A stretch of 64,000 nucleotides of DNA from a virus, in the IMG/VR virus record IMGVR_UViG_3300007511_000004, positions 64,001-128,000 of that record. One strand, given 5' to 3'. Position 1 is the first letter of the stretch, and every line of letters starts with the position of its first letter. The position numbers were made by a program, and so were the translations under genes. The notes under the pieces are model-generated. The model was not told where the DNA came from and did not search any database. It was given only the letters and a program-made list of their open reading frames with translations. This document shows positions 20,835 through 61,633 of the stretch, in pieces.

Positions 20835-23294
20835 GTGAGCTTTTACACATCAGTCGATGTCTATAATAATCGTGTTGTTTATCGAGGTTATACCGATAAC
20901 GGAACCCCGGTAAGCTACAAATATAAATTTGAACCGACCCTTTTCCTACCATCGACGGAAGAGACCGGGTGGCAATCTCTCGATGGGTATAATGTAAAAC
21001 CTCGACAGTTTACTTCACCGAGCGATATGCGAAATTGGATAAAAGCCAATGGGGATACTGATGGCTTTAAATATTATGGTTCTGACCGGCCGGTTATGCA
21101 GTTTATCCAGGATAAATTTCCAGGAGAGATCAAGTACAAAAAAGAACAGATCAATGTAGTCAATTTTGATATCGAGGTTTACTCAGAAGATGGCTTCCCG
21201 CATGCTGAAGAGGCATTGCATCCCATCACTGCTATCACTGCTAAATCCTCCCGTTCTAGCGTATACCACGTATGGGGTCTAAAAGATTATTCGGTAGAGG
21301 AATCCAAACACAAACAACTTATAATCCAGTATCACAAATGCGAGACCGAGGAGGAATTACTCTATAAATTCCTATCGTGGTGGAAAAAGGATTATCCAGA
21401 TATTGTTACTGGGTGGAATATTCGATTCTTTGATATTCCCTACGTCATTAATCGCATTGCCCGGATCGGATCCGAAAAGGCCGCTGAATCTCTTTCTCCA
21501 TGGGGGGTGGTTCGTCAGAAACAAGTCCAATTTAAAAATCAGAATATGGATTCTTATATGATCGTCGGGGTTAACCAGATGGATTATTATGACCTATTCA
21601 AGAAGTTTGGTTACAGTTACGGTCCTCAAGAATCCTATCGTTTGGATCATATTGCACACGTAGTATTAGGTGAACGCAAATTATCATATGAGGAATATGG
21701 TAACCTTCGCAACCTTTATAATGGAAATCATCAGCTTTATATAGACTATAACATCAAAGATGTGGAGCTTATTGAGCGGATGGATGAGAAGATGGATCTG
21801 ATCGGGCTTGCGTGCACTTTGGCGTATAAAGCTGGCGTGAATTTCACTGATGTCTTTGGTACAACCTCTATCTGGGATTCTATTGTATATAGAGAATTGA
21901 CCCCAAGGCATATCGCAGTACCTGCAATGAAAGCCCGGCACCGCATTGCCAACCAATCCGTGGGATTTGCAGGCGGGTATGTCAAAGATGTTAAACCTGA
22001 TATGTATGAGTGGGTGGTATCATTTGACCTAGCATCTCTGTATCCTAATATCATTGCTCAATGGAATATGTCACCCGAGACCCTTATAGATCATCCTCGA
22101 TCTGGTGATAATGTATCTCGTGCCGCAAACGGATCAAGTTATCTTAATGATTTCGAAGGGGCCTTTCCTCGGATCGTTAAGGCTTACTATGATGAACGCA
22201 AAGTCGTTAAGGAGGAAATGCTTGTTGCAATGAAACGCCAACAAGCAGAAGGTACGACTAAAGAACTTGAACGTGAGATTTCTACCGCCCAGAATAAACA
22301 GATGGCGATTAAGATTCTTATGAACTCGCTTTTCGGAGCAATTGGAAATAAATGGTATCGTTATTTCGATCTTAGGATTGCCGAAGGTATTACTTTAACT
22401 GGGCAGCATGTTATTAAATGGTGCGAACGCACGGTCAACGATGAGATCAATAAGATCTTGGGTACTAATGAAGATTATGTAATAGCAATTGATACCGACT
22501 CAGTCTATGTTAATTTCAAACCATTTATTGAAAAGTTCAAACCCGCTGATCCGGTGAAGTTCTTGGACGAAGTATGCCAAGATCATTTCAATAAGTTATT
22601 TGAACGATCAATGGAAGCCCTTTTCGAAGATAGTAATTGCTTCGAGAATCGAATGGATATGGACCGAGAGGTTATTGCCGATCGAGGGATTTGGCAGGCG
22701 AAGAAACGTTATATCCTGAACGTACACAATTCAGAGGGGGTTCAATATGAAAAGCCTAAGCTTAAGATTATGGGCATCGAAGCTATTAAATCCTCTACCC
22801 CCGAGCATGCCCGGAACTGGATGAAGGAGCTATTCCCGATCCTTATGACGGGTACCGAGAAGGAGACCCAGGATTATATCCGGGCTTGCAAAGAAAAATT
22901 CAAATCCCTTCGACCTGAAGAAGTGGCAGCGCCACGTGGTGTAAGCGATATTAATAAGTGGCAAAGCCGCGCAGAGATCTATGCAAAAGGTTGTCCTATT
23001 CACGTACGTGGTTCTTTACTTTATAATCATATGATATCTGATAAGGGTCTATCGGGGAAATACGACTACATCAAAAACGGGGAGAAGATTAAATATACAT
23101 ATCTTCGTAAGCCAAATCCTCTTAAGGAAAATGTAATAGCTTTCCCTGATTATCTTCCACCGGAGTTGGGCCTAGAGAGATACGTCGATTACGATCTACA
23201 ATTCGACAAGGCGTTTCTTGATCCGGTAAAAGCGATCCTTGATGCGATCGGTTGGAGAGCCGAAGAAACCGCAACCCTTGAAGCATTTTTCTAG
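20835..23294 (+). CDS. gp43: Family B DNA polymerase
   Basis: FDIEV, SFDLASLYP, KILMNSLFG, IDTDS, KKRY; uninterrupted. Confidence 0.98.
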   Translation: MSFYTSVDVYNNRVVYRGYTDNGTPVSYKYKFEPTLFLPSTEETGWQSLDGYNVKPRQFTSPSDMRNWIKANGDTDGFKYYGSDRPVMQFIQDKFPGEIKYKKEQINVVNFDIEVYSEDGFPHAEEALHPITAITAKSSRSSVYHVWGLKDYSVEESKHKQLIIQYHKCETEEELLYKFLSWWKKDYPDIVTGWNIRFFDIPYVINRIARIGSEKAAESLSPWGVVRQKQVQFKNQNMDSYMIVGVNQMDYYDLFKKFGYSYGPQESYRLDHIAHVVLGERKLSYEEYGNLRNLYNGNHQLYIDYNIKDVELIERMDEKMDLIGLACTLAYKAGVNFTDVFGTTSIWDSIVYRELTPRHIAVPAMKARHRIANQSVGFAGGYVKDVKPDMYEWVVSFDLASLYPNIIAQWNMSPETLIDHPRSGDNVSRAANGSSYLNDFEGAFPRIVKAYYDERKVVKEEMLVAMKRQQAEGTTKELEREISTAQNKQMAIKILMNSLFGAIGNKWYRYFDLRIAEGITLTGQHVIKWCERTVNDEINKILGTNEDYVIAIDTDSVYVNFKPFIEKFKPADPVKFLDEVCQDHFNKLFERSMEALFEDSNCFENRMDMDREVIADRGIWQAKKRYILNVHNSEGVQYEKPKLKIMGIEAIKSSTPEHARNWMKELFPILMTGTEKETQDYIRACKEKFKSLRPEEVAAPRGVSDINKWQSRAEIYAKGCPIHVRGSLLYNHMISDKGLSGKYDYIKNGEKIKYTYLRKPNPLKENVIAFPDYLPPELGLERYVDYDLQFDKAFLDPVKAILDAIGWRAEETATLEAFF

Positions 23295-23365
23295 TAGGGG
23301 GGTTTCTTTATCTAAGAAAGTATGATATAATATGAACATTCACAATGGGAAGAACGGAGAATTAT

Positions 23366-23776
23366 ATGTCTGATTGGGCAAATGATATTTATATGATGCA
23401 CAATAAATTTGGGGTGCGAGAATGGTTTGAGAAAAATAAAGACAATGAAGAATTGATGCGAGAATACCTTCAATTTCGAATGTCTATGATTATGGAAGAA
23501 TTTGTTGAAACCCTGGATGCTATTGAGGCTAAAGACCCCGAAGAAATTGTTGACGGTCTGATTGATCTATGTGTCTTTGCAATTGGTACCCTGGACGTAA
23601 TGGGCGTGGATGCGAATATGGCATGGGATCAGATCCATGAAGCCAATATGTCTAAATCGCCGGGCGTGAAGCCTGGCCGTCCGAACCCGTTTGGCATGCC
23701 GGATCTTCTTAAGCCTGAGGGTTGGGTAGGACCAAGTCATGAGGGAAATCATGGCGATCTCGCTCTCGTCGTTTAA
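23366..23776 (+). CDS. MazG/all-alpha dNTP pyrophosphohydrolase
   Basis: EEFVE, EIVDGLID, HEANMSK, KPEGW. Confidence 0.85.
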   Translation: MSDWANDIYMMHNKFGVREWFEKNKDNEELMREYLQFRMSMIMEEFVETLDAIEAKDPEEIVDGLIDLCVFAIGTLDVMGVDANMAWDQIHEANMSKSPGVKPGRPNPFGMPDLLKPEGWVGPSHEGNHGDLALVV

Positions 23777-24677
23777 AAATCAATACGACAATAAACCTAA
23801 ACAAACGGATTTCTCAGATTGGAAACATTTTGAGAGATTCCTCTATGCCCTTGCTGAAAGACCGCTAGGAGGTAAAAGGGATGCAGAACTTATTTCTCCG
23901 GCTGTATATGAGCCTGGAACCAGACGCGCAAATAAAAATGTATTATCTTGGGCAGGCTGGTGTGCTGTTGATGTTGACGATATTGAACTTGGGGATGACA
24001 ATGTAAACGATTACGTTGACACCTTGTCCGATTGGCGTTACGTCTGCTATTCTACGGCTAGCTCTAAAGAAGAACAGCCTAAGTTTAGGATCGTCTTCCA
24101 ATTAGATCGAGACGTAGTAACTCAAGAGATTAAACATTTCTGGTACGCCCTCCAATCGTATTTGGATGAAGCTGGGGATAAACAGTGTAAAGATCTCAGT
24201 CGAATGTACTATGTTCCCGCAACGTATGATAGCGCGTTCAACTTCATTTTCAGTGGTGGTTCGGAGCCATTAGTGGTATCTGATCTACTTAGCAAATATC
24301 CGTATGTGGAAAAGAAAAATAGTAATAACTTTATAGATCGACTACCGGAGAAACTTCAGCGGCAGGTGATCGAACATCGTAAATCGAAGATGGAGGCAAC
24401 CCAATACAATTGGTCTGGATATACCGATTGTCCATTCTGGCCAACTAAACTTGCTAACGAGTATCGAGGGATCACTGGAACTGGTTGGTATCATAAGATG
24501 TATCAAATCATGGTAGCGATATCAGCCCGAGCTATTAGTAAGGGATACCCTATAAGAGCTGATCAGGTTGCAGAATTATGTAAGGAATTCGATCGTGAAA
24601 ATGGCAATTGGTACGAGTCTCGACCCCTAGAAGTTGAAGCCGATCGCGCGCTCGAGTACGCATATAAAAACATATAG
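23751..24677 (+). CDS. Archaeo-eukaryotic-type primase-like protein
   Basis: AVDVDD (DxD), YSTAS, KFRIVF, KDLSRMYYVP, helical C-terminal domain. Confidence 0.7.
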   Translation: MAISLSSFKNQYDNKPKQTDFSDWKHFERFLYALAERPLGGKRDAELISPAVYEPGTRRANKNVLSWAGWCAVDVDDIELGDDNVNDYVDTLSDWRYVCYSTASSKEEQPKFRIVFQLDRDVVTQEIKHFWYALQSYLDEAGDKQCKDLSRMYYVPATYDSAFNFIFSGGSEPLVVSDLLSKYPYVEKKNSNNFIDRLPEKLQRQVIEHRKSKMEATQYNWSGYTDCPFWPTKLANEYRGITGTGWYHKMYQIMVAISARAISKGYPIRADQVAELCKEFDRENGNWYESRPLEVEADRALEYAYKNI

Positions 24678-26013: not shown

Positions 26014-26230
26014 AAGAAAGAGGCCTGGACTGATAACTCGTCTTTTCACAGACCTGTATACCGTAACACTCTACATAGAAGAGGACGGTGTGACAACCCA
26101 GACAATTTATAGACTGAAAGAGCTTAAAAAGATTAACTCCCATTATCTAAAGGGCGTGCTTGAAGATGGAACCGAAATCGAGTTTCGAATGGAGAAATCC
26201 TTTGATTATAAGGTGGTGAAACATTACTAA
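26003..26230 (+). CDS. Hypothetical protein
   Basis: GAGG RBS; TAATG coupling to kdsA. Confidence 0.6.
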   Translation: MKNRRKRPGLITRLFTDLYTVTLYIEEDGVTTQTIYRLKELKKINSHYLKGVLEDGTEIEFRMEKSFDYKVVKHY

Positions 26231-27015
26231 TGCGGATTATTGCAGGACCGTGTCAACACGAGAGTTTAAGTCAAAGTCTAGATATTGCAAAAGAATGTAA
26301 ATGGGTATGTGATCAGTATGGCTTTGAATACATCTTCAAGGCCAGCTATGATAAAGCTAATCGTACACACGTTAACGGCAAACGAGGATTAGGGCTATAT
26401 CAGACTCTCTATGACTTCAAAGATATGAAAGACGAGATCCCTGACCTAAAGATCCTTACTGATGTTCATACAAGTGCTGATGTATATGCAATAGCGGATA
26501 ATATGGAACTGGCGGATGTTGTTGATATTGTACAAATCCCCGCATTCCTATGTCGCCAAACTGATTTAATCCAAGCCGCCGCAAACCGGTTTAAGATCGT
26601 TAATATTAAGAAAGGCCAGTTCCTTGCACCTTGGGATGTACAAGGCATCCTAAGTAAGACTGAAGCCTATGACATTGAAACCTGGATCACAGAAAGGGGT
26701 ACCAGCTTTGGATACAACACTCTCGTTAATGACTTTGCAGGCATGCAATATCTTCATAATTTGTTGGGCGATAACTTCGTTTACGATGTTACTCATTCAG
26801 TCCAGTCACCAGGAGGTAAAGGAGATTCTTCTGGCGGCAACCGTGATTTCGTTGCCGGTCTTAGCCGTGCAGCTGCTGCTATGGGCATTTCTTCTTTCTT
26901 TATAGAAGTTCATCCAGATCCGGACAACGCTCCAAGCGATGGGCCCAATATGATTCAACTAGATAAATTTCAACAGGTGATTGATGACATCGACCGCTAT
27001 TCTTATCCCCGCTAG
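26230..27015 (+). CDS. kdsA: KDO-8-phosphate synthase
   Basis: IAGPC, FKASYDKANRT, QIPAFLCRQTDL, KKGQFLAP, DVTHSVQ, EVHPDP...SDGPN. Confidence 0.95.
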   Translation: MRIIAGPCQHESLSQSLDIAKECKWVCDQYGFEYIFKASYDKANRTHVNGKRGLGLYQTLYDFKDMKDEIPDLKILTDVHTSADVYAIADNMELADVVDIVQIPAFLCRQTDLIQAAANRFKIVNIKKGQFLAPWDVQGILSKTEAYDIETWITERGTSFGYNTLVNDFAGMQYLHNLLGDNFVYDVTHSVQSPGGKGDSSGGNRDFVAGLSRAAAAMGISSFFIEVHPDPDNAPSDGPNMIQLDKFQQVIDDIDRYSYPR

Positions 27016-27673
27016 GATCGGGTCTAAAAGGTTTCCGGGTAAACCTTTAATCCACCTTGATGGTGTACCTATGATTCGAAGGATCTACGATATTTGTAGC
27101 TCTACGGGTCTGCGCACGTATGTTCTTACGGACTCTGAAGAGATCTGTAAGGTTATCCCAAATGGCGATGCACTGATGACCGACGGTTATAGCGATCTTC
27201 CCCCTCGGAATGGTACTGAGCGCTGCTCAATCGCAGCGGCCCATATAAAAGATCTTGCCGAGCACGATTATTTTATCAACGTTCAGGGAGATATGCCAGA
27301 CATAACCCCCGAAATGATCCATAAGGTACGTGCTTTATTGGATCACTATACTGTATCAACGTTATATACGGATCTGCCTGAAAATATGAAGGAGGATCCA
27401 AATACGGTTAAAATGATAACCAACGGCGACATCGCACATTGGTTCGGTCGAGGGTTTAAATACGGGCATCACCACTTGGGAATCTATGGGTACCGTAAAA
27501 CCGCCCTAAAAAGTTACTATCATCGTGCTCCATCTGAATATGAAATTATCGAGGAATTGGAACAGCTAAGATGGTTCGAGGGGGGTTTACGGATAGGCGT
27601 AGATATGGTACAATTCAATGGTATCGAAATTAATACACCAGAAGACGCGGAAAGGTGGAACGCTAATGACTGA
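26984..27673 (+). CDS. kdsB: CMP-KDO synthetase
   Basis: IPARIGSKRFPGKPL, NGTER, NVQGD, HLGIYGYR, LEQLR. Confidence 0.93.
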   Translation: MTSTAILIPARIGSKRFPGKPLIHLDGVPMIRRIYDICSSTGLRTYVLTDSEEICKVIPNGDALMTDGYSDLPPRNGTERCSIAAAHIKDLAEHDYFINVQGDMPDITPEMIHKVRALLDHYTVSTLYTDLPENMKEDPNTVKMITNGDIAHWFGRGFKYGHHHLGIYGYRKTALKSYYHRAPSEYEIIEELEQLRWFEGGLRIGVDMVQFNGIEINTPEDAERWNAND

Positions 27674-27710
27674 TAAAGCACTTTGGATGAATAACTGAGG
27701 GGGATCTTAA

Positions 27711-28058
27711 ATGAAAGCTGGAAAAGTATGGGGTATGACTGAACTCATTGAAGCCAATGGGGCTTTAGAGTTTCACCGTATTGAAATGGATAAGGGCGGG
27801 GTTTGTTCAAAACACCTCCATGAGTTTAAGTGGAATGGATTCTACGTCGAGTCTGGTAAGATGCTTATTCGAGTATGGCAAAAAGATTATGATCTTGTAG
27901 ATGAAACTATTCTATATCCTGGTGATTATACTAAGGTAAAGCCTGGGGTATACCACCAATTCGAATGTCTTGAATCCGGGGTAGCTTATGAGCTGTACTG
28001 GGCGGAGTTTTCTCATTCAGATATCAAACGGGAGACGGTTGGGTTTCAACAACACTAG
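27711..28058 (+). CDS. Cupin (sugar isomerase/epimerase-like)
   Basis: KVWG, CSKHLH, VESG, PGVYHQF. Confidence 0.75.
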   Translation: MKAGKVWGMTELIEANGALEFHRIEMDKGGVCSKHLHEFKWNGFYVESGKMLIRVWQKDYDLVDETILYPGDYTKVKPGVYHQFECLESGVAYELYWAEFSHSDIKRETVGFQQH

Positions 28059-28066
28059 GATCAAAT

Positions 28067-28624
28067 ATGAAAGAGCTAGAACCCGTTGGTATAACCTGTA
28101 GCACCTTTGATCTATTACATGCCGGTCACATACTAATGTTGAGAGAAGCAAAAAATGTCTGCAATTATCTAATTTGTGGTTTACAAGTAGATCCAAGTTA
28201 TGATAGAATATATAAGAACCCACCGGTACAGACGTTAGTAGAACGCTACTCTCAACTGGCTGCAGTGAGGTATGTTGATGAAATTATTCCATACCAAACC
28301 GAGAAGGATTTAATGGATATATTGCAAATGTATCCTATTGATGTACGCATTATCGGCGACGAATATAAGACCCGAGATTTTACTGGTAAAGAAGAATGTC
28401 GTCGTCTAGGCATTGACATTTATTATAATAAAAGGGATCATAGATTTTCATCTTCTGATCTAAGACAAAGGGTACATGAGAATGAACAGAGTAAGCGGGA
28501 GAAATCTCTCCGAGGGGCTCAAAGCGCTAAGGACTTTATTATACAGACAGGGATACGAGATTCAGACGGGGAGCTGGCAGGGTACGACCTCTCCGCCTAC
28601 GTTCCTGGAGATTCTTCACGCTGA
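28067..28624 (+). CDS. tagD: Glycerol-3-phosphate cytidylyltransferase-like
   Basis: STFDLLHAGH, YVDEIIPY, IIGDEY, RFSSS. Confidence 0.85.
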   Translation: MKELEPVGITCSTFDLLHAGHILMLREAKNVCNYLICGLQVDPSYDRIYKNPPVQTLVERYSQLAAVRYVDEIIPYQTEKDLMDILQMYPIDVRIIGDEYKTRDFTGKEECRRLGIDIYYNKRDHRFSSSDLRQRVHENEQSKREKSLRGAQSAKDFIIQTGIRDSDGELAGYDLSAYVPGDSSR

Positions 28625-29264
28625 CCTCGTTGCTCCTATGTATAGTAATGCGAAGAGAGCGTCAGATGAATTAGAAGCAAGTCAACCCTGGGCTGATGTA
28701 CACTTTCGAGAACGGGTCGGCGGCGAACCTCTGAATCCTCCCCCATCACATACTATGTGGCTTAAAGACACTGAGAAATATATGTCGGGTGCTAATGATA
28801 CCGCATTCTCTCACTCCTACCCTGAACGTATGTGGGCACCGAGCGTCGATGGTATCCGCTTTAAAACTGGTAACCTGGGCGATGCAGTAGAGCTACTTAA
28901 AAAAGATAGCACTACCCGCCAGTGCTACGTTCCCATGTGGTTTCCCGAGGATATTGTAGCAGCCAATGCGGGAGAACGAGTACCGTGCTCATTTGGATGG
29001 CACTTTCTGGAACGTGGCGGTCAACTACACTGTTCATATCATATGCGATCTTGTGATGTAGTCCGACACTTACATAATGATCTATACTTCGCCAATCGTC
29101 TTACTATGTGGATGATTGAGCAAAGCGGTATGGATGTTAAGCCTGGGTATCTTCACTTCTCCTCGACCTCGCTCCATTGCTTTGCAAATGATCGTTTCGC
29201 ATTGAGGCGTCTTTCGGGTGTGACCGAATATAACTGGGATAATTTTGAAGGAGCAGCCGTTTAA
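28482..29264 (+). CDS. Thymidylate-synthase-fold dCMP-modifying enzyme (gp42-like)
   Basis: RVPC catalytic Cys, MRSCDVVRHLHND with Asp at the dCMP-specificity position, SLHCF. Confidence 0.75.
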   Translation: MNRVSGRNLSEGLKALRTLLYRQGYEIQTGSWQGTTSPPTFLEILHADLVAPMYSNAKRASDELEASQPWADVHFRERVGGEPLNPPPSHTMWLKDTEKYMSGANDTAFSHSYPERMWAPSVDGIRFKTGNLGDAVELLKKDSTTRQCYVPMWFPEDIVAANAGERVPCSFGWHFLERGGQLHCSYHMRSCDVVRHLHNDLYFANRLTMWMIEQSGMDVKPGYLHFSSTSLHCFANDRFALRRLSGVTEYNWDNFEGAAV

Positions 29265-30559
29265 TGTGTGGACTTATTGCAGCAATTGGTTCCGAAATCG
29301 ATGTAGAGGCGTTACTTGAGACCATCGCCCATCGCGGTTTACCCGGATATAAAGGATATGAACGAAATCGGGACGTTCAGCTAGGCCATTATAGTCTACC
29401 CTTCGTCAATCTCGACCCTAACGTTGCCATTCAACCTCGAATGAATAGTAATTCGCTATTTGTTGGAGAAATCTTTAATTATGAAGAATTGGGGTTTGAG
29501 GATGATATTGAGGCAGCTTGGCAAACCTTTTGGATAAAGGGCATCCGAGAGTTTAATAGATTTGATGGCTTCTGGACATATGTCACAGTTATGGATGGGG
29601 CACTGTTCGGGGTAACCGATCATCTTAGCATTAAACCCCTTTATTATCGTACCGATGTAGATGCCATGGCTTCCGAGCCTGAAGTACTACGGGCATTCGG
29701 TCCAGTTACTCGTAATGAATTATTCCATGCCAATACTATGAAGTGGGGATACGATCCAACCGGTGGCACCCCGTGGAATGAGATTCAACAGGTTCCACCC
29801 GGATGTTTTGTATATAAGGGGCAAGTACACAAGTACTGGGATTGGAGGACTATCTCGCACACTAACTTGCGGGCTGATCTAATCGAATCAGTCGAACGAC
29901 GACTTGGCGGCCAACGCGATCTTTCAATCCTACTATCTGGCGGACTTGATTCAACTATCATCTATAAAATAATTACTGAAATCCTCAATCGTGATGTTAC
30001 TGCGATCCATGTGGATAATCAAGAAGAAGACTACGCCCGATTGGTTTCAAATGAGATGATCGAAGTTCGACTTGATGGTATCAGTGATGCAGACAGCGTA
30101 TCGGTTCACCAATCACCCGTGGATCTGGGGAGTACTAAGCCCCAGATCGCCATGGCCCGGAAGTTGAAAGAATTAGCCTTTCATGCAGTATTGACCGGCG
30201 ATGGTGCAGATGAACTTTTCGGGGGTTATCGACGCGCTAAAGAGTATGATAGTCAAGCTTCCGACATTTGGTGCGAGCTACCGTACTATCACCTACCTAA
30301 ATTAGATCGTACAATGATGAAGAGTACTATTGAACTTCGCGCACCATTCCTATCTCCTAAGGTAATCGTCCATGCTCTTAATACCCCCTATGAACAACGT
30401 AATGGTGAAAAGAAAGTACTAAAGGAAGCGTTCAAAGATCTTGTGCCACAGGAAATCTTAGATCGAGATAAACACCCTCTTAAGACCGATCAAATTCGTA
30501 CTGATCCAATGAAACAACGAATTATTAATGAAAAAATCTGGAGAGAATTTAATGGATAA
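29264..30559 (+). CDS. Asparagine-synthetase-B-like glutamine amidotransferase
   Basis: N-terminal MCG, HRG, GEIFNY, LLSGGLDS, LTGDGADELFGGY, ELRAPFL. Confidence 0.9.
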   Translation: MCGLIAAIGSEIDVEALLETIAHRGLPGYKGYERNRDVQLGHYSLPFVNLDPNVAIQPRMNSNSLFVGEIFNYEELGFEDDIEAAWQTFWIKGIREFNRFDGFWTYVTVMDGALFGVTDHLSIKPLYYRTDVDAMASEPEVLRAFGPVTRNELFHANTMKWGYDPTGGTPWNEIQQVPPGCFVYKGQVHKYWDWRTISHTNLRADLIESVERRLGGQRDLSILLSGGLDSTIIYKIITEILNRDVTAIHVDNQEEDYARLVSNEMIEVRLDGISDADSVSVHQSPVDLGSTKPQIAMARKLKELAFHAVLTGDGADELFGGYRRAKEYDSQASDIWCELPYYHLPKLDRTMMKSTIELRAPFLSPKVIVHALNTPYEQRNGEKKVLKEAFKDLVPQEILDRDKHPLKTDQIRTDPMKQRIINEKIWREFNG

Positions 30560-30989
30560 GTGGGATACTCGTTATTTGAAATTGGCGAAGGAAGTCTCTA
30601 CCTGGTCTAAAGATCCTTCGACCCAGATTGGAGCAGTAGCCGTCGGGAATAAGGGCGAAATATTATCGACCGGATATAACGGCTTCCCTCGCCACATTGC
30701 CGATCTTGATGAAAGATATGAAGATAGAGATATCAAATATAAATACATCGTCCATGCAGAGGCTAATTGCATATATAATGCTACATATAATGGGGTATCT
30801 CTAAGAGACAGCACCATGTACGTCTACGGTCTCCCCTGCTGTTCCGAATGTGGAAAGGCCATTATCCAAGTCGGGGTTAAACGAGTGGTCATGCACGGGG
30901 ATCCTAATAATGATAGGTGGCGGGAATCTACGGAACGCACGCTAGGAATGTTTAAAGAAGCACTGATTGAATGGGAGTTTGATAATTGA
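30552..30989 (+). CDS. cd: dCMP deaminase
   Basis: SKDPSTQIGA, TGYNG, HAEAN, PCCSEC. Confidence 0.92.
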   Translation: MDKWDTRYLKLAKEVSTWSKDPSTQIGAVAVGNKGEILSTGYNGFPRHIADLDERYEDRDIKYKYIVHAEANCIYNATYNGVSLRDSTMYVYGLPCCSECGKAIIQVGVKRVVMHGDPNNDRWRESTERTLGMFKEALIEWEFDN

Positions 30990-31828
30990 AACGGATTATT
31001 ATTGTCGGTCACGGCTTTGTTGGGAAGGCAGTAGATTACGGGTTTACGAATCCACAGGTAGAGAAGATCATAATTGATCCGAAATATGGTACAGATCTTT
31101 CCGACCTAAGCAATCTTATTGAAACAGACGCAATATTTGTCTGCTTACCTACCCCCATGGATAAGGATGGATCGATCGATAGCGAAATCCTTGAATCGAC
31201 ATTGACCCGTCTTAAGGGTCGGATCACTGGTCTTGATAGACCTAAGGTAATTGTTAAATCAACCGTGACTCCCGACGTGCTCAAGCGGGTCTACTTCCGA
31301 GGCTTAGTTTATAATCCGGAATTCCTGACGGAGCGATCTGCAAATGAACAATTCATCAATCCTACTATGCACATTTTAGGTGGCAGACGCGAAGATACTG
31401 AAGTGGTAGAGAAGCTAATTAATGAATATTCTCTTTGTAGCCCCGCACCCGTTTACCATATGTCTATGTCAGAGGCGTCATTTGTTAAATATGGCATCAA
31501 CGCCTTCCTTGCACTTAAGGTCCTTTTCTTCAATCAGTTGTATGATGTCGTGAATGACGATGATGATAGTAATTTCGCACGCGTCATAAAAGCCATAGGT
31601 TCTGATCCGCGGATCGGCCACAGTCACACAAAGGTGCCGGGTTTTGATGGTAAACAAGGATTCGGTGGTGCATGTTTTCCCAAGGACATTTCTGCATTAA
31701 ATACCTTCTCAGAGAGGTTTACAATCCTCGAAGAATGTGTTACAATAAACAATAACTATCGTAAGAACTATGTATTAGACGATAGAGAGAAATCACAAAA
31801 TATTTCATACAGGGAAACCAATAAATGA
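30986..31828 (+). CDS. ugd: UDP-glucose 6-dehydrogenase-like
   Basis: GHGFVG, CLPTP, KSTV, NPEFL, GFGGACFPKD. Confidence 0.9.
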   Translation: MKRIIIVGHGFVGKAVDYGFTNPQVEKIIIDPKYGTDLSDLSNLIETDAIFVCLPTPMDKDGSIDSEILESTLTRLKGRITGLDRPKVIVKSTVTPDVLKRVYFRGLVYNPEFLTERSANEQFINPTMHILGGRREDTEVVEKLINEYSLCSPAPVYHMSMSEASFVKYGINAFLALKVLFFNQLYDVVNDDDDSNFARVIKAIGSDPRIGHSHTKVPGFDGKQGFGGACFPKDISALNTFSERFTILEECVTINNNYRKNYVLDDREKSQNISYRETNK

Positions 31829-36163: not shown

Positions 36164-36394
36164 ATGCAAAATACTAGTAACGCAATCCGTAAACTGGTTC
36201 GACAGGAATATCTGAAATCCCCGGATCGTATCATCAACCAGTTAAAGGCTTCTAGGAAAGGTAAGCGGACCATGGTGACTATTGAGAACCCGAATAAAGA
36301 GGAAACCAACCGCCCCTTTATCCGGATTGAGGGTAAGGCCTGGTTTAAGTCCCAGAAGAAGACCAATCAAATTACTGTAAAGGAGGCAGAATGA
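36164..36394 (+). CDS. Hypothetical protein
   Basis: AGGAG RBS; NPNKEETNRPFIR. Confidence 0.7.
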   Translation: MQNTSNAIRKLVRQEYLKSPDRIINQLKASRKGKRTMVTIENPNKEETNRPFIRIEGKAWFKSQKKTNQITVKEAE

Positions 36395-37062
36395 AAGCGC
36401 GTCTAGTCGGGTATACCCAACCCACCCTAGAATTCGAGAATGAATTTCGGAACGTCCAGGATCTGATCGCTTTCTGTGCACGGGTCTCAAATCCTGCCAA
36501 TCAGTTTAATAATGAGACCGGCAAGAAGCTTATTGAGTATCTGATTAAGCATAAACATTGGTCACCCCTTGAAATGGCGAGTGCAACCCTGGAAGTTGAA
36601 ACCACTCGGGATATTGCTCGACAGCTTATCCGACATAGATCATTTTCGTTTCAGGAGTTCTCACAGCGCTATGCTGATCCGAATGACCTAGAGGAATCAT
36701 TTGTATTGAGGGAAGCGCGACTCCAGGATCCTAAGAATCGTCAAAACTCTATAGATAATGATGATGAGAAATTGCAGAAAGGCTGGCACTTTAAACAACA
36801 GCAGATTATCCATGAATGCAAGTTAGCATACAAATGGGCAATCGAAAATGGTATCGCAAAGGAACAGGCGCGAGCAGTACTTCCGGAAGGCAATACAGTA
36901 TCTAAATTGTATGTCAATGGTACACTCAGATCCTGGGTGCATTATATCGAATTACGGACGGGTAACGGAACGCAAAAAGAGCACATTGAGCTAGCTAGAG
37001 AGTGCGCAATTGCAATCGCCCGCTGTTTCCCTATGGTAGAAGGATTTACAGAGAATGGGTAA
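36391..37062 (+). CDS. thyX: Flavin-dependent thymidylate synthase
   Basis: HWSPLE, RHRSFSFQEFSQRY, EQARAVLP, GTQKEH. Confidence 0.96.
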   Translation: MKARLVGYTQPTLEFENEFRNVQDLIAFCARVSNPANQFNNETGKKLIEYLIKHKHWSPLEMASATLEVETTRDIARQLIRHRSFSFQEFSQRYADPNDLEESFVLREARLQDPKNRQNSIDNDDEKLQKGWHFKQQQIIHECKLAYKWAIENGIAKEQARAVLPEGNTVSKLYVNGTLRSWVHYIELRTGNGTQKEHIELARECAIAIARCFPMVEGFTENG

Positions 37063-37836: not shown

Positions 37837-38421
37837 ATGAAAATGCTTCCGAAGATTCTAGTAGTTGGTCATGGCCGACATGGTAAAGATAGCGTGGCTG
37901 AGATCCTCCAAATGTTCTATGGGATGACCTTTAGAGGATCAAGTGAGTTTTGTGCTGAGACTGTATGCTTTCCCGCAATGAAGGCCGAATATGGTTATAA
38001 AGATTATATGGAGTGTTTTGATGATCGCCATAATCATCGATCGGAGTGGTATGATCTTATCTCGCAATATTGTGCTGAAGATCCAACCCGGCTAGGTCGT
38101 GAAATCTTTAAGGTATCGGATGTCTACTGCGGACTTCGGAATAAAAGAGAATTCCATGCACTGAAAAATGCAGGAGTATTTGATATTGCGCTATGGGTAG
38201 ATCGATCCGATCATCTACCACCAGAAGATAGGGCGAGTAATACTATTGAACCTTGGATGGCAGATTTTGTCATTGATAATAATGGCTCCAGGGATGATCT
38301 AACCCTTGCAGTGAAACAACTTATGGATAACCTATTGGGTCGAAATAGTCCCGAAGTATCTAATATGTCACATCACCAAGAATTTGCAACTGAAAATATC
38401 ATTAACTTGGATAATATCTAA
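37837..38421 (+). CDS. Deoxynucleoside monophosphate kinase-like
   Basis: VGHGRHGKD P-loop, GLRNKRE, DFVIDNNG. Confidence 0.65.
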   Translation: MKMLPKILVVGHGRHGKDSVAEILQMFYGMTFRGSSEFCAETVCFPAMKAEYGYKDYMECFDDRHNHRSEWYDLISQYCAEDPTRLGREIFKVSDVYCGLRNKREFHALKNAGVFDIALWVDRSDHLPPEDRASNTIEPWMADFVIDNNGSRDDLTLAVKQLMDNLLGRNSPEVSNMSHHQEFATENIINLDNI

Positions 38422-61189: not shown

Positions 61190-61633
61190 ATGTGGTATTA
61201 TAATGATGAAGAGTATCATCCATCAGCCGAAGAATTAGATGGATGGATAGGATTCGTTTATGTTATTACCGATAAGAGCAATAACAAAAAGTATGTGGGA
61301 AAGAAACTATTCTGGTCGAAGAAGACCCTTCCACCACTCAAAGGTAAAACACGAAAAAGACGAAAAATCATTGAATCCGATTGGCAGAAATATTATGGAT
61401 CGAGTGACCTTGTCAAACAACTCCTTGTCGAGCACGGGGAGTCTAACTTCCATCGAGAAATATTATACTTCTGCAAATCGAAAGGTGAGATGGGATACCT
61501 CGAATTAAGAGAACAAGTATTACGTAACGTTCTTTTGGATGACGATTATTATAATGGTATCGTTAACGCTAGAGTGCACCGGAACCACGTTAAAAGGGTG
61601 AAGGAGCTTTGGGAAGATGGAAAACTGGATTAA
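61190..61633 (+). CDS. GIY-YIG endonuclease (DenA/EndoII-like)
   Basis: GFVY...KKYVGKK, WQKYYGS, YYNG. Confidence 0.75.
   Translation: MWYYNDEEYHPSAEELDGWIGFVYVITDKSNNKKYVGKKLFWSKKTLPPLKGKTRKRRKIIESDWQKYYGSSDLVKQLLVEHGESNFHREILYFCKSKGEMGYLELREQVLRNVLLDDDYYNGIVNARVHRNHVKRVKELWEDGKLD

Follow-up and report, generated by a model that had tools for sequence, protein, structure and literature searches.

We analyzed a 64,000-nucleotide stretch (the window, bases 64001-128000) taken from a complete virus genome of 146,556 bp that has direct terminal repeats, and focused on a gene for a thymidylate synthase (TS)-like protein that is directly followed by a gene for an asparagine synthetase B (AsnB)-like protein. 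The genome is that of a marine T4-like myovirus; its DNA polymerase (20835-23294) is 49% identical to that of Phage C48C1 and about 45% identical to those of Synechococcus myophages; genes for HSP20, Cpn10 and ribosomal protein S21 are present in relatives. On the plus strand, positions 28482-29264 encode a TS-fold enzyme of a distinct clade (Pfam TS, PF00303, 31.3 bits with a cut-off of 24.3 bits; phrog_160, 3e-29), positions 29264-30559 an AsnB-fold, PP-loop, AMP-forming amidotransferase with an N-terminal Cys domain (Pfam Asn_synthase, 2e-31), and positions 30528-30989 a deoxycytidine monophosphate (dCMP) deaminase whose HAE...PCxxC zinc motif is intact (Pfam dCMP_cyt_deam_1, 7e-21; phrog_174, 2e-44). 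At the junction GTT TAATG TGT, the TS-like stop codon (29262-29264) overlaps the AsnB-like ATG at 29264, and the start of the deaminase gene overlaps the end of the AsnB-like gene by 32 nt. An earlier note on this DNA had reported a TS-fold open reading frame (ORF) TAATG-coupled to a complete AsnB-like ORF and followed by dCMP deaminase, and both the ORFs and the junction were found as described there. The TS-like gene likely starts at 28482 and not at 28476, because its relatives begin with the consensus N-terminus MNRVSGR.

Aligned by HMMER with solved TS structures, the window segment RSCDVVRHLHND falls opposite RSADVFLGVPFN, which places an Asp at the position of Escherichia coli ThyA Asn177, and VPCSFGWHF falls opposite the catalytic PPCH. 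MAFFT alignment with E. coli ThyA, T4 gp42 and the Xp12 TS gave the same placement, in agreement with the Asp that the earlier note had assigned to this site. In ThyA numbering, C146, R126, R166, S167 and D169 are kept, and the changes are N177D, L143R, H147S, R127Q, L172R, G173H, P175H, F176N and Y209F, so that the loop from D169 to N177 reads DVVRHLHND versus DVFLGLPFN in ThyA. These active-site residues are invariant in 20 relatives, Asp177 being D200 of the family alignment. Both the fold and the catalytic Cys146, which attacks C6, place the protein in the TS superfamily.

Asp177 denotes a cytosine substrate in TS homologues (PMC13326640, PMC8670742), and Ser167 and Arg126 mark deoxy substrates, the CMP-specific MilA and BcmA having Ala/Lys instead (PMC5175136). 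The motifs RSCD and TTRQ of the TS-like protein retain Ser167 and Arg126; Arg127 is replaced by Gln, and the alignment at Arg21 is unreliable. From this dCMP-type signature (Asp177, Ser167, Arg126 and the catalytic Cys) we predict that the TS-like protein is a dCMP C5-modifying enzyme, and it is because of these residues that we infer dCMP as the substrate of the first step proposed below. As to the group placed at C5, an acidic residue (Asp/Glu) at ThyA Leu143 correlates with hydroxymethylation (PMC13326640). This signature of T4-type hydroxymethylases is absent from the TS-like protein, which has a clade-invariant Arg at 143 (motif ERVPC) and Glu at 142, although the residue is a correlate and not a proof of product.

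The structural model of the TS-like protein, with a predicted local distance difference test (pLDDT) value of 73.5, matched the phage dCMP hydroxylase AfhB best (9iqu and 9iqc, VIA Z 17.0 and 16.9; Foldseek rank 1), about 1 Z above human TS (15.9), with MilA at 15.0. Such a ranking would fit a flavin-dependent 5-hydroxy-dCMP synthase of the RB69/HY126 AfhB type, whose 5-hydroxyl group would then be decorated, for example with a sugar acid amidated by the AsnB-like enzyme, and nucleotide-sugar genes are indeed adjacent in this phage. However, the D169N exchange that is diagnostic of all tested 5-hydroxy-dCMP synthases (RB69 gp48/HY126 AfhB) is absent, Asp169 being kept and invariant throughout the family. 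Moreover, the Z lead is just about 1, no glycosyltransferase was found in the complete genome, and the sugar genes are variable among relatives. We regard 5-hydroxylation as quite unlikely.

The AsnB-like ORF is complete, beginning with MCG and containing the PP loop SGGLDS. Its AlphaFold model (pLDDT 86.9) shows the full two-domain fold with a TM score of 0.78 to E. coli AsnB (1ct9), to which it was also matched by hhalign (99.7%). The residues Cys1, Arg30, Gly75, Glu76, Asn79, Asp98, Asp351, Glu352, Tyr357, Lys429 and Lys449 are kept along with the PP loop, and the features expected of an AsnB-family PP-loop enzyme (SGGLDS, K403 as the catalytic Lys449, and MCG) are all invariant. The protein therefore shares with E. 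coli AsnB and human ASNS the two-domain fold, the N-terminal Cys, the PP loop and the catalytic Lys449, but it is about 120 amino acids shorter than AsnB and differs at several positions. Across the viral family the changes are E348D, S350A, K376 to a hydrophobic residue (K376I in the window protein), D384H and N389D, of which E348D and D384H are invariant; R49S and N74V occur only in the subfamily of the window protein, and many distant members retain Arg and Asn there. In human ASNS, the amino group of the aspartyl intermediate sits in a pocket formed by the equivalents of E348, D351 and D384 (human Asp-400; PMC6748925). With the NCBIfam equivalog model for AsnB (asn_synth_AEB, TIGR01536), the viral protein scored 165.9 bits, well short of the cut-off of 267.1 bits. 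We predict that it is the enzyme of a second step, in which an amide or an amine is formed.

For an analysis of gene neighborhoods, about 190 loci were fetched and reduced to 105 with non-redundant full-length AsnB-like genes. Close relatives have 56-86% identity in the AsnB-like protein; distant ones have 34-47% and other gene orders, and are not T4-like. The TS-like gene lies immediately upstream and the deaminase gene downstream of the AsnB-like gene in 62 of 62 close relatives with enough flanking sequence, and a TS-like gene of the same clade is present in all 15 distant relatives with at least 4.5 kb on both sides (hhalign 99.95% for L109). The neighborhood check that the earlier note had proposed thus came out in favor of the pair, with co-occurrence in 77/77 non-redundant loci with enough flank. 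When all distant loci are counted, the TS-like gene is found in 24 of 27, the other three loci being truncated. In these distant loci it lies 2-5 kb from the AsnB-like gene, either up- or downstream, and UvsX is not nearby. The co-occurrence supports a functional link between the TS-like and AsnB-like proteins. The family is large: the AsnB-like protein forms more than 120 clusters at ≥57% identity, on contigs of up to 157 kb, and about 670 clusters (50% identity) at E≤1e-30, which are common in marine metagenomes on contigs of phage size (130-157 kb).

Nucleotide-pool genes usually accompany the pair. PRA-PH homologues lie near it in 35 of 62 close and 13 of 27 distant loci, and the distant modules hold a small P-loop kinase just upstream of the AsnB-like gene, a PRA-PH protein or dUTPase, a dCMP deaminase and an N6/N4-methyltransferase-like protein. 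A divergent C5-methyltransferase-like protein is encoded in 18 of the 27 distant loci. No tblastn match to the kinase, the C5-methyltransferase-like or the methyltransferase-like proteins of the distant modules was found in the genome of the window. The C5-methyltransferase-like family (L109:3212-4588, with homologues in L112, L120-L126, L137, L139, L154, L156 and L161) has HPECG as motif IV, DD/DN replacing ENV and a C-terminal CxxCW...C motif, and is essentially without homologues in cultured phages.

The linkage bears on a rival explanation, in which the TS-like enzyme methylates dCMP as in Xp12 and the deaminase turns 5-methyl-dC nucleotides into dT nucleotides, the AsnB-like gene being an auxiliary metabolic gene for an ordinary asparagine synthetase. 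Deaminases that are linked to Asp177-type TS homologues and act on 5-methyl-dCTP or 5-hydroxymethyl-dCTP are documented, as are TS homologues that make 5-methyl-dCMP (bioRxiv 10.1101/2024.12.05.627091). In Xp12, too, an Asp177 TS homologue adjoins a dCMP-family deaminase, which would suit such a thymidylate route, but it shares only 35% identity over 109 residues with the window protein, and Xp12 has no amidotransferase. A survey of pelagimyophages simply lists "two thymidylate synthases and a dCMP deaminase" (PMC7029224), and the AsnB-like protein does retain most AsnB catalytic residues and the acidic cluster. However, ThyX is already present in the genome (see below), and the AsnB-like gene accompanies the TS clade into distant phages with other gene orders (15/15), which is unexpected for an unrelated metabolic gene. 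An ordinary asparagine synthetase is further disfavored by the shorter chain, the invariant E348D and D384H, the hydrophobic residue at K376 and the score of 166 against a 267-bit cut-off. We consider this explanation unlikely.

The pair is flanked in the window by sugar genes. Positions 26230-28624 encode KdsA and KdsB, the enzymes of CMP-Kdo synthesis, together with a cupin and a second cytidylyltransferase, and positions 30986-31828 a nucleoside diphosphate (NDP)-sugar dehydrogenase of 280 amino acids; the latter matches the N-terminal and central domains but not the C-terminal UDP-binding domain, and is absent from many relatives. The cytidylyltransferase-like ORF (28067-28624) extends about 145 nt into the TS-like ORF (28476-28624) in another frame, an overlap that is kept in relatives L001 and L007. 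Since its Pfam domain stops near residue 135-138, the tail of the cytidylyltransferase-like protein may be a by-product of the overlap.

Given these neighbors, the AsnB-like enzyme might act on a sugar acid, either Kdo or a uronate produced by the dehydrogenase, and amidate it in the manner of WbpS-type amidotransferases for glycans of the host surface or the virion, an outcome that the earlier note had named as one that would refute its proposal. Yet the presence of KdsA/B, the cupin, the cytidylyltransferase and the dehydrogenase varies even from one close relative to another (KdsA/B occurring in few loci, and the UDP-glucose dehydrogenase-like gene often being absent), and none of these genes is found in distant loci, so that most relatives keep the TS-like, AsnB-like and deaminase triad without them. 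Because they vary in this way, we place the sugar genes outside the unit. The strict co-occurrence of the triad, together with the variable sugar genes, ties the AsnB-like protein to the TS-like and nucleotide-pool enzymes and not to the sugar genes. In addition, the complete genome contains no KdsC, no KdsD and no GT1 or GT2 glycosyltransferase. Amidation of a glycan is, in our view, highly improbable.

In the window, the DNA polymerase gene is followed by a MazG/PRA-PH gene (23345), a primase-like gene (23739), two unknown ORFs, KdsA (26230), KdsB (26981), the cupin (27711) and the cytidylyltransferase-like gene (28067); after the TS-like (28482), AsnB-like (29264) and deaminase (30528) genes come the short NDP-sugar dehydrogenase (30986), uvsX with an intein, a gp41-like helicase, ThyX (36391) and an ORF resembling deoxynucleoside monophosphate (dNMP) kinase (37837). 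The corresponding order in T4 is 43 - imm - 42 (dCMP hydroxymethylase) - beta-gt - segA - uvsX - 40 - 41. Comparison of the two orders shows that the TS-like/AsnB-like pair occupies the position of T4 gene 42 and beta-gt, between gp43 and uvsX.

Three accessory genes named in the earlier note, for ThyX, a MazG-type pyrophosphatase and a dNMP-kinase-like protein, are all present on the plus strand. The PRA-PH/MazG-type all-alpha NTP pyrophosphatase (23345-23776; Pfam PRA-PH, 8e-12; phrog_671, 5e-26) is a candidate dCTPase/dUTPase, which would feed dCMP and remove dCTP. ThyX, the flavin-dependent thymidylate synthase (36391-37062), is conserved in relatives, and its homologues in related contigs carry Pfam Thy1; as it supplies thymidine monophosphate (dTMP), the TS-like gene is dispensable for thymidylate. 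The dNMP-kinase-like protein (37837-38421) matched phrog_139 (dNMP kinase, 5e-13) and phrog_38514 (7e-58), the latter also being matched by the MazG ORF, and gave no match in Pfam and NCBIfam profile searches; it may be the kinase for modified dCMP. A fourth proposed gene fared differently: the GIY-YIG nuclease at 61190, which had been likened to DenA, is a SegE-type homing endonuclease (61190-61633; PF19835, 6e-36).

The whole set resembles the T4 genes gp56, gp42, gp1 and cd in combining an NTP pyrophosphatase, an Asp177 TS homologue, a dNMP kinase and a dCMP deaminase at an equal genomic position, with the place of T4 beta-gt taken by the gene for the second step. In contrast to T4, the TS homologue is not an orthologue of gp42 (BLAST gave no match to gp42) and has Arg instead of Asp/Glu at 143, and the second enzyme is an amidotransferase and not a glycosyltransferase; the lack of GT1/GT2 genes therefore excludes a T4-type glycosylation pathway. 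The MetaGPA study found Asp177-type TS, PRA-PH and dCMP deaminase enriched together on contigs with modified cytosine (PMC8670742). The MetaGPA supplementary tables do not list Asn_synthase and give GATase_7 as "depleted", with low counts.

For the second step, the nearest known parallel is the CmoA/CmoX/CmoY system of Synechococcus phage S-B43, which places 5-carboxymethylcytosine and its glycine amide in DNA (Yang et al. 2025, PMC12783734). The ligation of glycine to the carboxymethylated base in DNA is carried out by CmoY, an AsnB homologue, and a cluster of CmoY-type ligases that retains the glutaminase domain is predicted to use ammonia (PMC12783734). In both cases a phage AsnB-family AMP-forming enzyme would end a C5-cytosine modification by amide formation. 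The partner differs, however, being a TS-fold enzyme here, and SpCmoY (271 amino acids) consists of the synthetase only and is too divergent for tblastn. CmoA (TIGR00740) and C5-methyltransferase (PF00145) profiles had no match in the complete 146,556-bp genome at E≤1, tblastn found no CmoA in the roughly 190 related loci, and the C5-methyltransferase-like proteins of the distant modules carry HPECG versus the SPPC motif that defines CmoX. We conclude that the module is not a Cmo system; it is one that joins a TS-type first step to an AsnB-type second step. DUF1599/Nmad1 was not found in the genome of the window, and a small ORF upstream of the L073 TS-like gene matched it weakly (E 0.06). A literature search combining asparagine synthetase, thymidylate synthase, phage and cytosine returned no paper describing the pair.

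On balance, we favor the view that the TS-like and AsnB-like enzymes are central to a pathway of two steps by which cytosine in phage DNA is replaced or decorated, and that the pair probably builds an undescribed amide- or amine-bearing cytosine. In the first step, the MazG-type pyrophosphatase would supply dCMP, and the conserved Cys of the TS-fold enzyme would attack its C6, allowing a substituent to be placed at C5. Since the cofactor pocket of the TS-like protein is rewired, this substituent need not be methyl or hydroxymethyl. In the second step, by analogy with the AsnB family and CmoY, the AsnB-like enzyme would use ATP to adenylate an oxygen function of the C5 substituent, most likely a carboxylate. 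To our knowledge, carboxylate adenylation is common to every characterized AsnB-family enzyme, including the phage DNA amide ligase CmoY. Ammonia from the N-terminal Cys domain could then displace AMP to give a carboxamide- or amine-bearing cytosine, either on the nucleotide or on DNA after replication. A dNMP kinase and the NDP kinase of the host would then convert the product to the triphosphate that the phage polymerase uses, with dCMP deaminase and ThyX sustaining the supply of dTTP. The proposal of the earlier note, a dCMP modified at C5 and then aminated or amidated, thus stands as regards the dCMP-type signature, the TS-AsnB functional link and the accessory genes, and has lost the DenA equivalent. 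Collectively, our results point to a real and widespread phage module, for which a function in cytosine hypermodification is partly supported.

Several observations weigh against the proposed pathway. Folate-type one-carbon transfer by itself yields no carboxylate for the second step. The glutaminase activity may be altered in the subfamily of the window protein, because Ser replaces the glutamine-binding Arg49 and Val the oxyanion Asn74, and aspartate as a substrate is compatible with the residues found, because the acidic cluster is largely kept (D/D/E). TS-clade members in Muddy, Zuko, Serratia and Yersinia phages occur without an AsnB-like gene and have an unrelated partner of about 290 amino acids instead. 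Two contigs of one Tara lineage (AsnB-like cluster P0110) have a disrupted TS-like gene: most of it is deleted in L019 (7746-7868), and two in-frame stops four codons apart interrupt it in L020 (7276-8001). The AsnB-like and deaminase genes are intact in both contigs; this disruption is either natural decay or an assembly error. Finally, no cultured phage was found to have the AsnB-like gene: a tblastn search of 50,697 phage records with the AsnB-like protein yielded just two weak matches, to unannotated 4-kb records, and megablast of the locus against cultured phages gave no match.

Two further readings were considered. In place of methyl- or hydroxymethyl-dCMP, the rewired TS-like enzyme (Arg143, Arg172-His173, Asn176) may produce a dCMP with a carboxyl-bearing group, either as 5-carboxy-dCMP or through an exocyclic methylene trapped with an amino acid, which the AsnB-like enzyme would turn into a carboxamide; we put this version forward tentatively, as a doubtful one. 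Alternatively, the AsnB-like enzyme could aminate a pyrimidine carbonyl, adenylating O4 of deoxyuridine monophosphate (dUMP), dTMP or a 5-substituted dUMP to give a dCMP derivative that feeds or balances the pool of the TS-like enzyme. No carboxylate-forming step is evident in the window, the deaminase encoded alongside acts in the reverse chemical direction, and the PP-loop enzymes GMP synthetase and TilS adenylate nucleobase carbonyls. Carbonyl amination beside a deaminase would, however, be a futile cycle, and we know of no member of the AsnB family proper that aminates a pyrimidine carbonyl. This second possibility appears to us very improbable.

If a new cytosine derivative is indeed made, a large group of ocean phages would have DNA that resists restriction and CRISPR nucleases, and such DNA would bias sequencing libraries and distort estimates of abundance in viromes. 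Among the products of the TS superfamily it would be a fourth or fifth class, and it would extend CmoY-type chemistry, the formation of an amide on C5 of cytosine, to a pathway without carboxy-S-adenosylmethionine (Cx-SAM). Should the version with a carboxyl-bearing group hold, an undescribed base such as 5-carbamoyl-dC would be present in marine T4-like phages, which are abundant, and in hundreds of further uncultured phage lineages. Its synthesis, on the nucleotide, would be a type of reaction new to the TS superfamily. Enzymes of this kind are sought as tools for DNA labeling and modified-base sequencing.

In cultured phages, the TS clade is represented by proteins called "thymidylate synthases" in Muddy, Zuko, Gordonia and Microbacterium phages, Serratia phage Opt-155 and Yersinia phage P744 (31-42% identity). 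All of them, among these Muddy gp46, Zuko gp76 and the TS homologues of the Serratia and Yersinia siphophages, share with the window protein the pattern D177, R143, Q127, H173 and F209. In these phages the module runs dTMP kinase - dUTPase or MazG - a protein of about 270-350 amino acids (phrog_13667) - TS-like - dCMP deaminase - DNA polymerase I, and the partner is unrelated to the AsnB-like enzyme. The phrog_13667 match is to the actinophage partner proteins. Neither Muddy gp47 nor Zuko gp75 showed a relationship to the AsnB-like profile or to PDB sequences. A conserved partner lies just upstream of the TS gene at L023:3030-3923 (Muddy gp47), L029:3907-4968 (Zuko gp75), L025:4177-4986 and L024:4208-5041. 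Its place within a module of dTMP kinase, dUTPase and deaminase hints that Muddy, a therapy phage, may likewise alter its cytosine pool. A literature search found no paper on this TS clade.

The 312-amino-acid ORF that follows MazG in the window (23739-24677) was considered as a counterpart of Muddy gp47 and rejected, as it is unrelated and primase-like (phrog_9765, 2e-37; weak BT4734-like N-terminal domain); it stays beside MazG in relatives. Outside the window, on the minus strand of the same genome (G000:C1:45152-57456; L105:1152-13035), lies a series of genes encoding a tryptophan-halogenase-like flavoenzyme (Pfam, 1e-62), four radical S-adenosylmethionine (SAM) proteins and two or three 2-oxoglutarate-Fe(II) oxygenases. 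This series looks like a second, unrelated modification or natural-product-like cluster.

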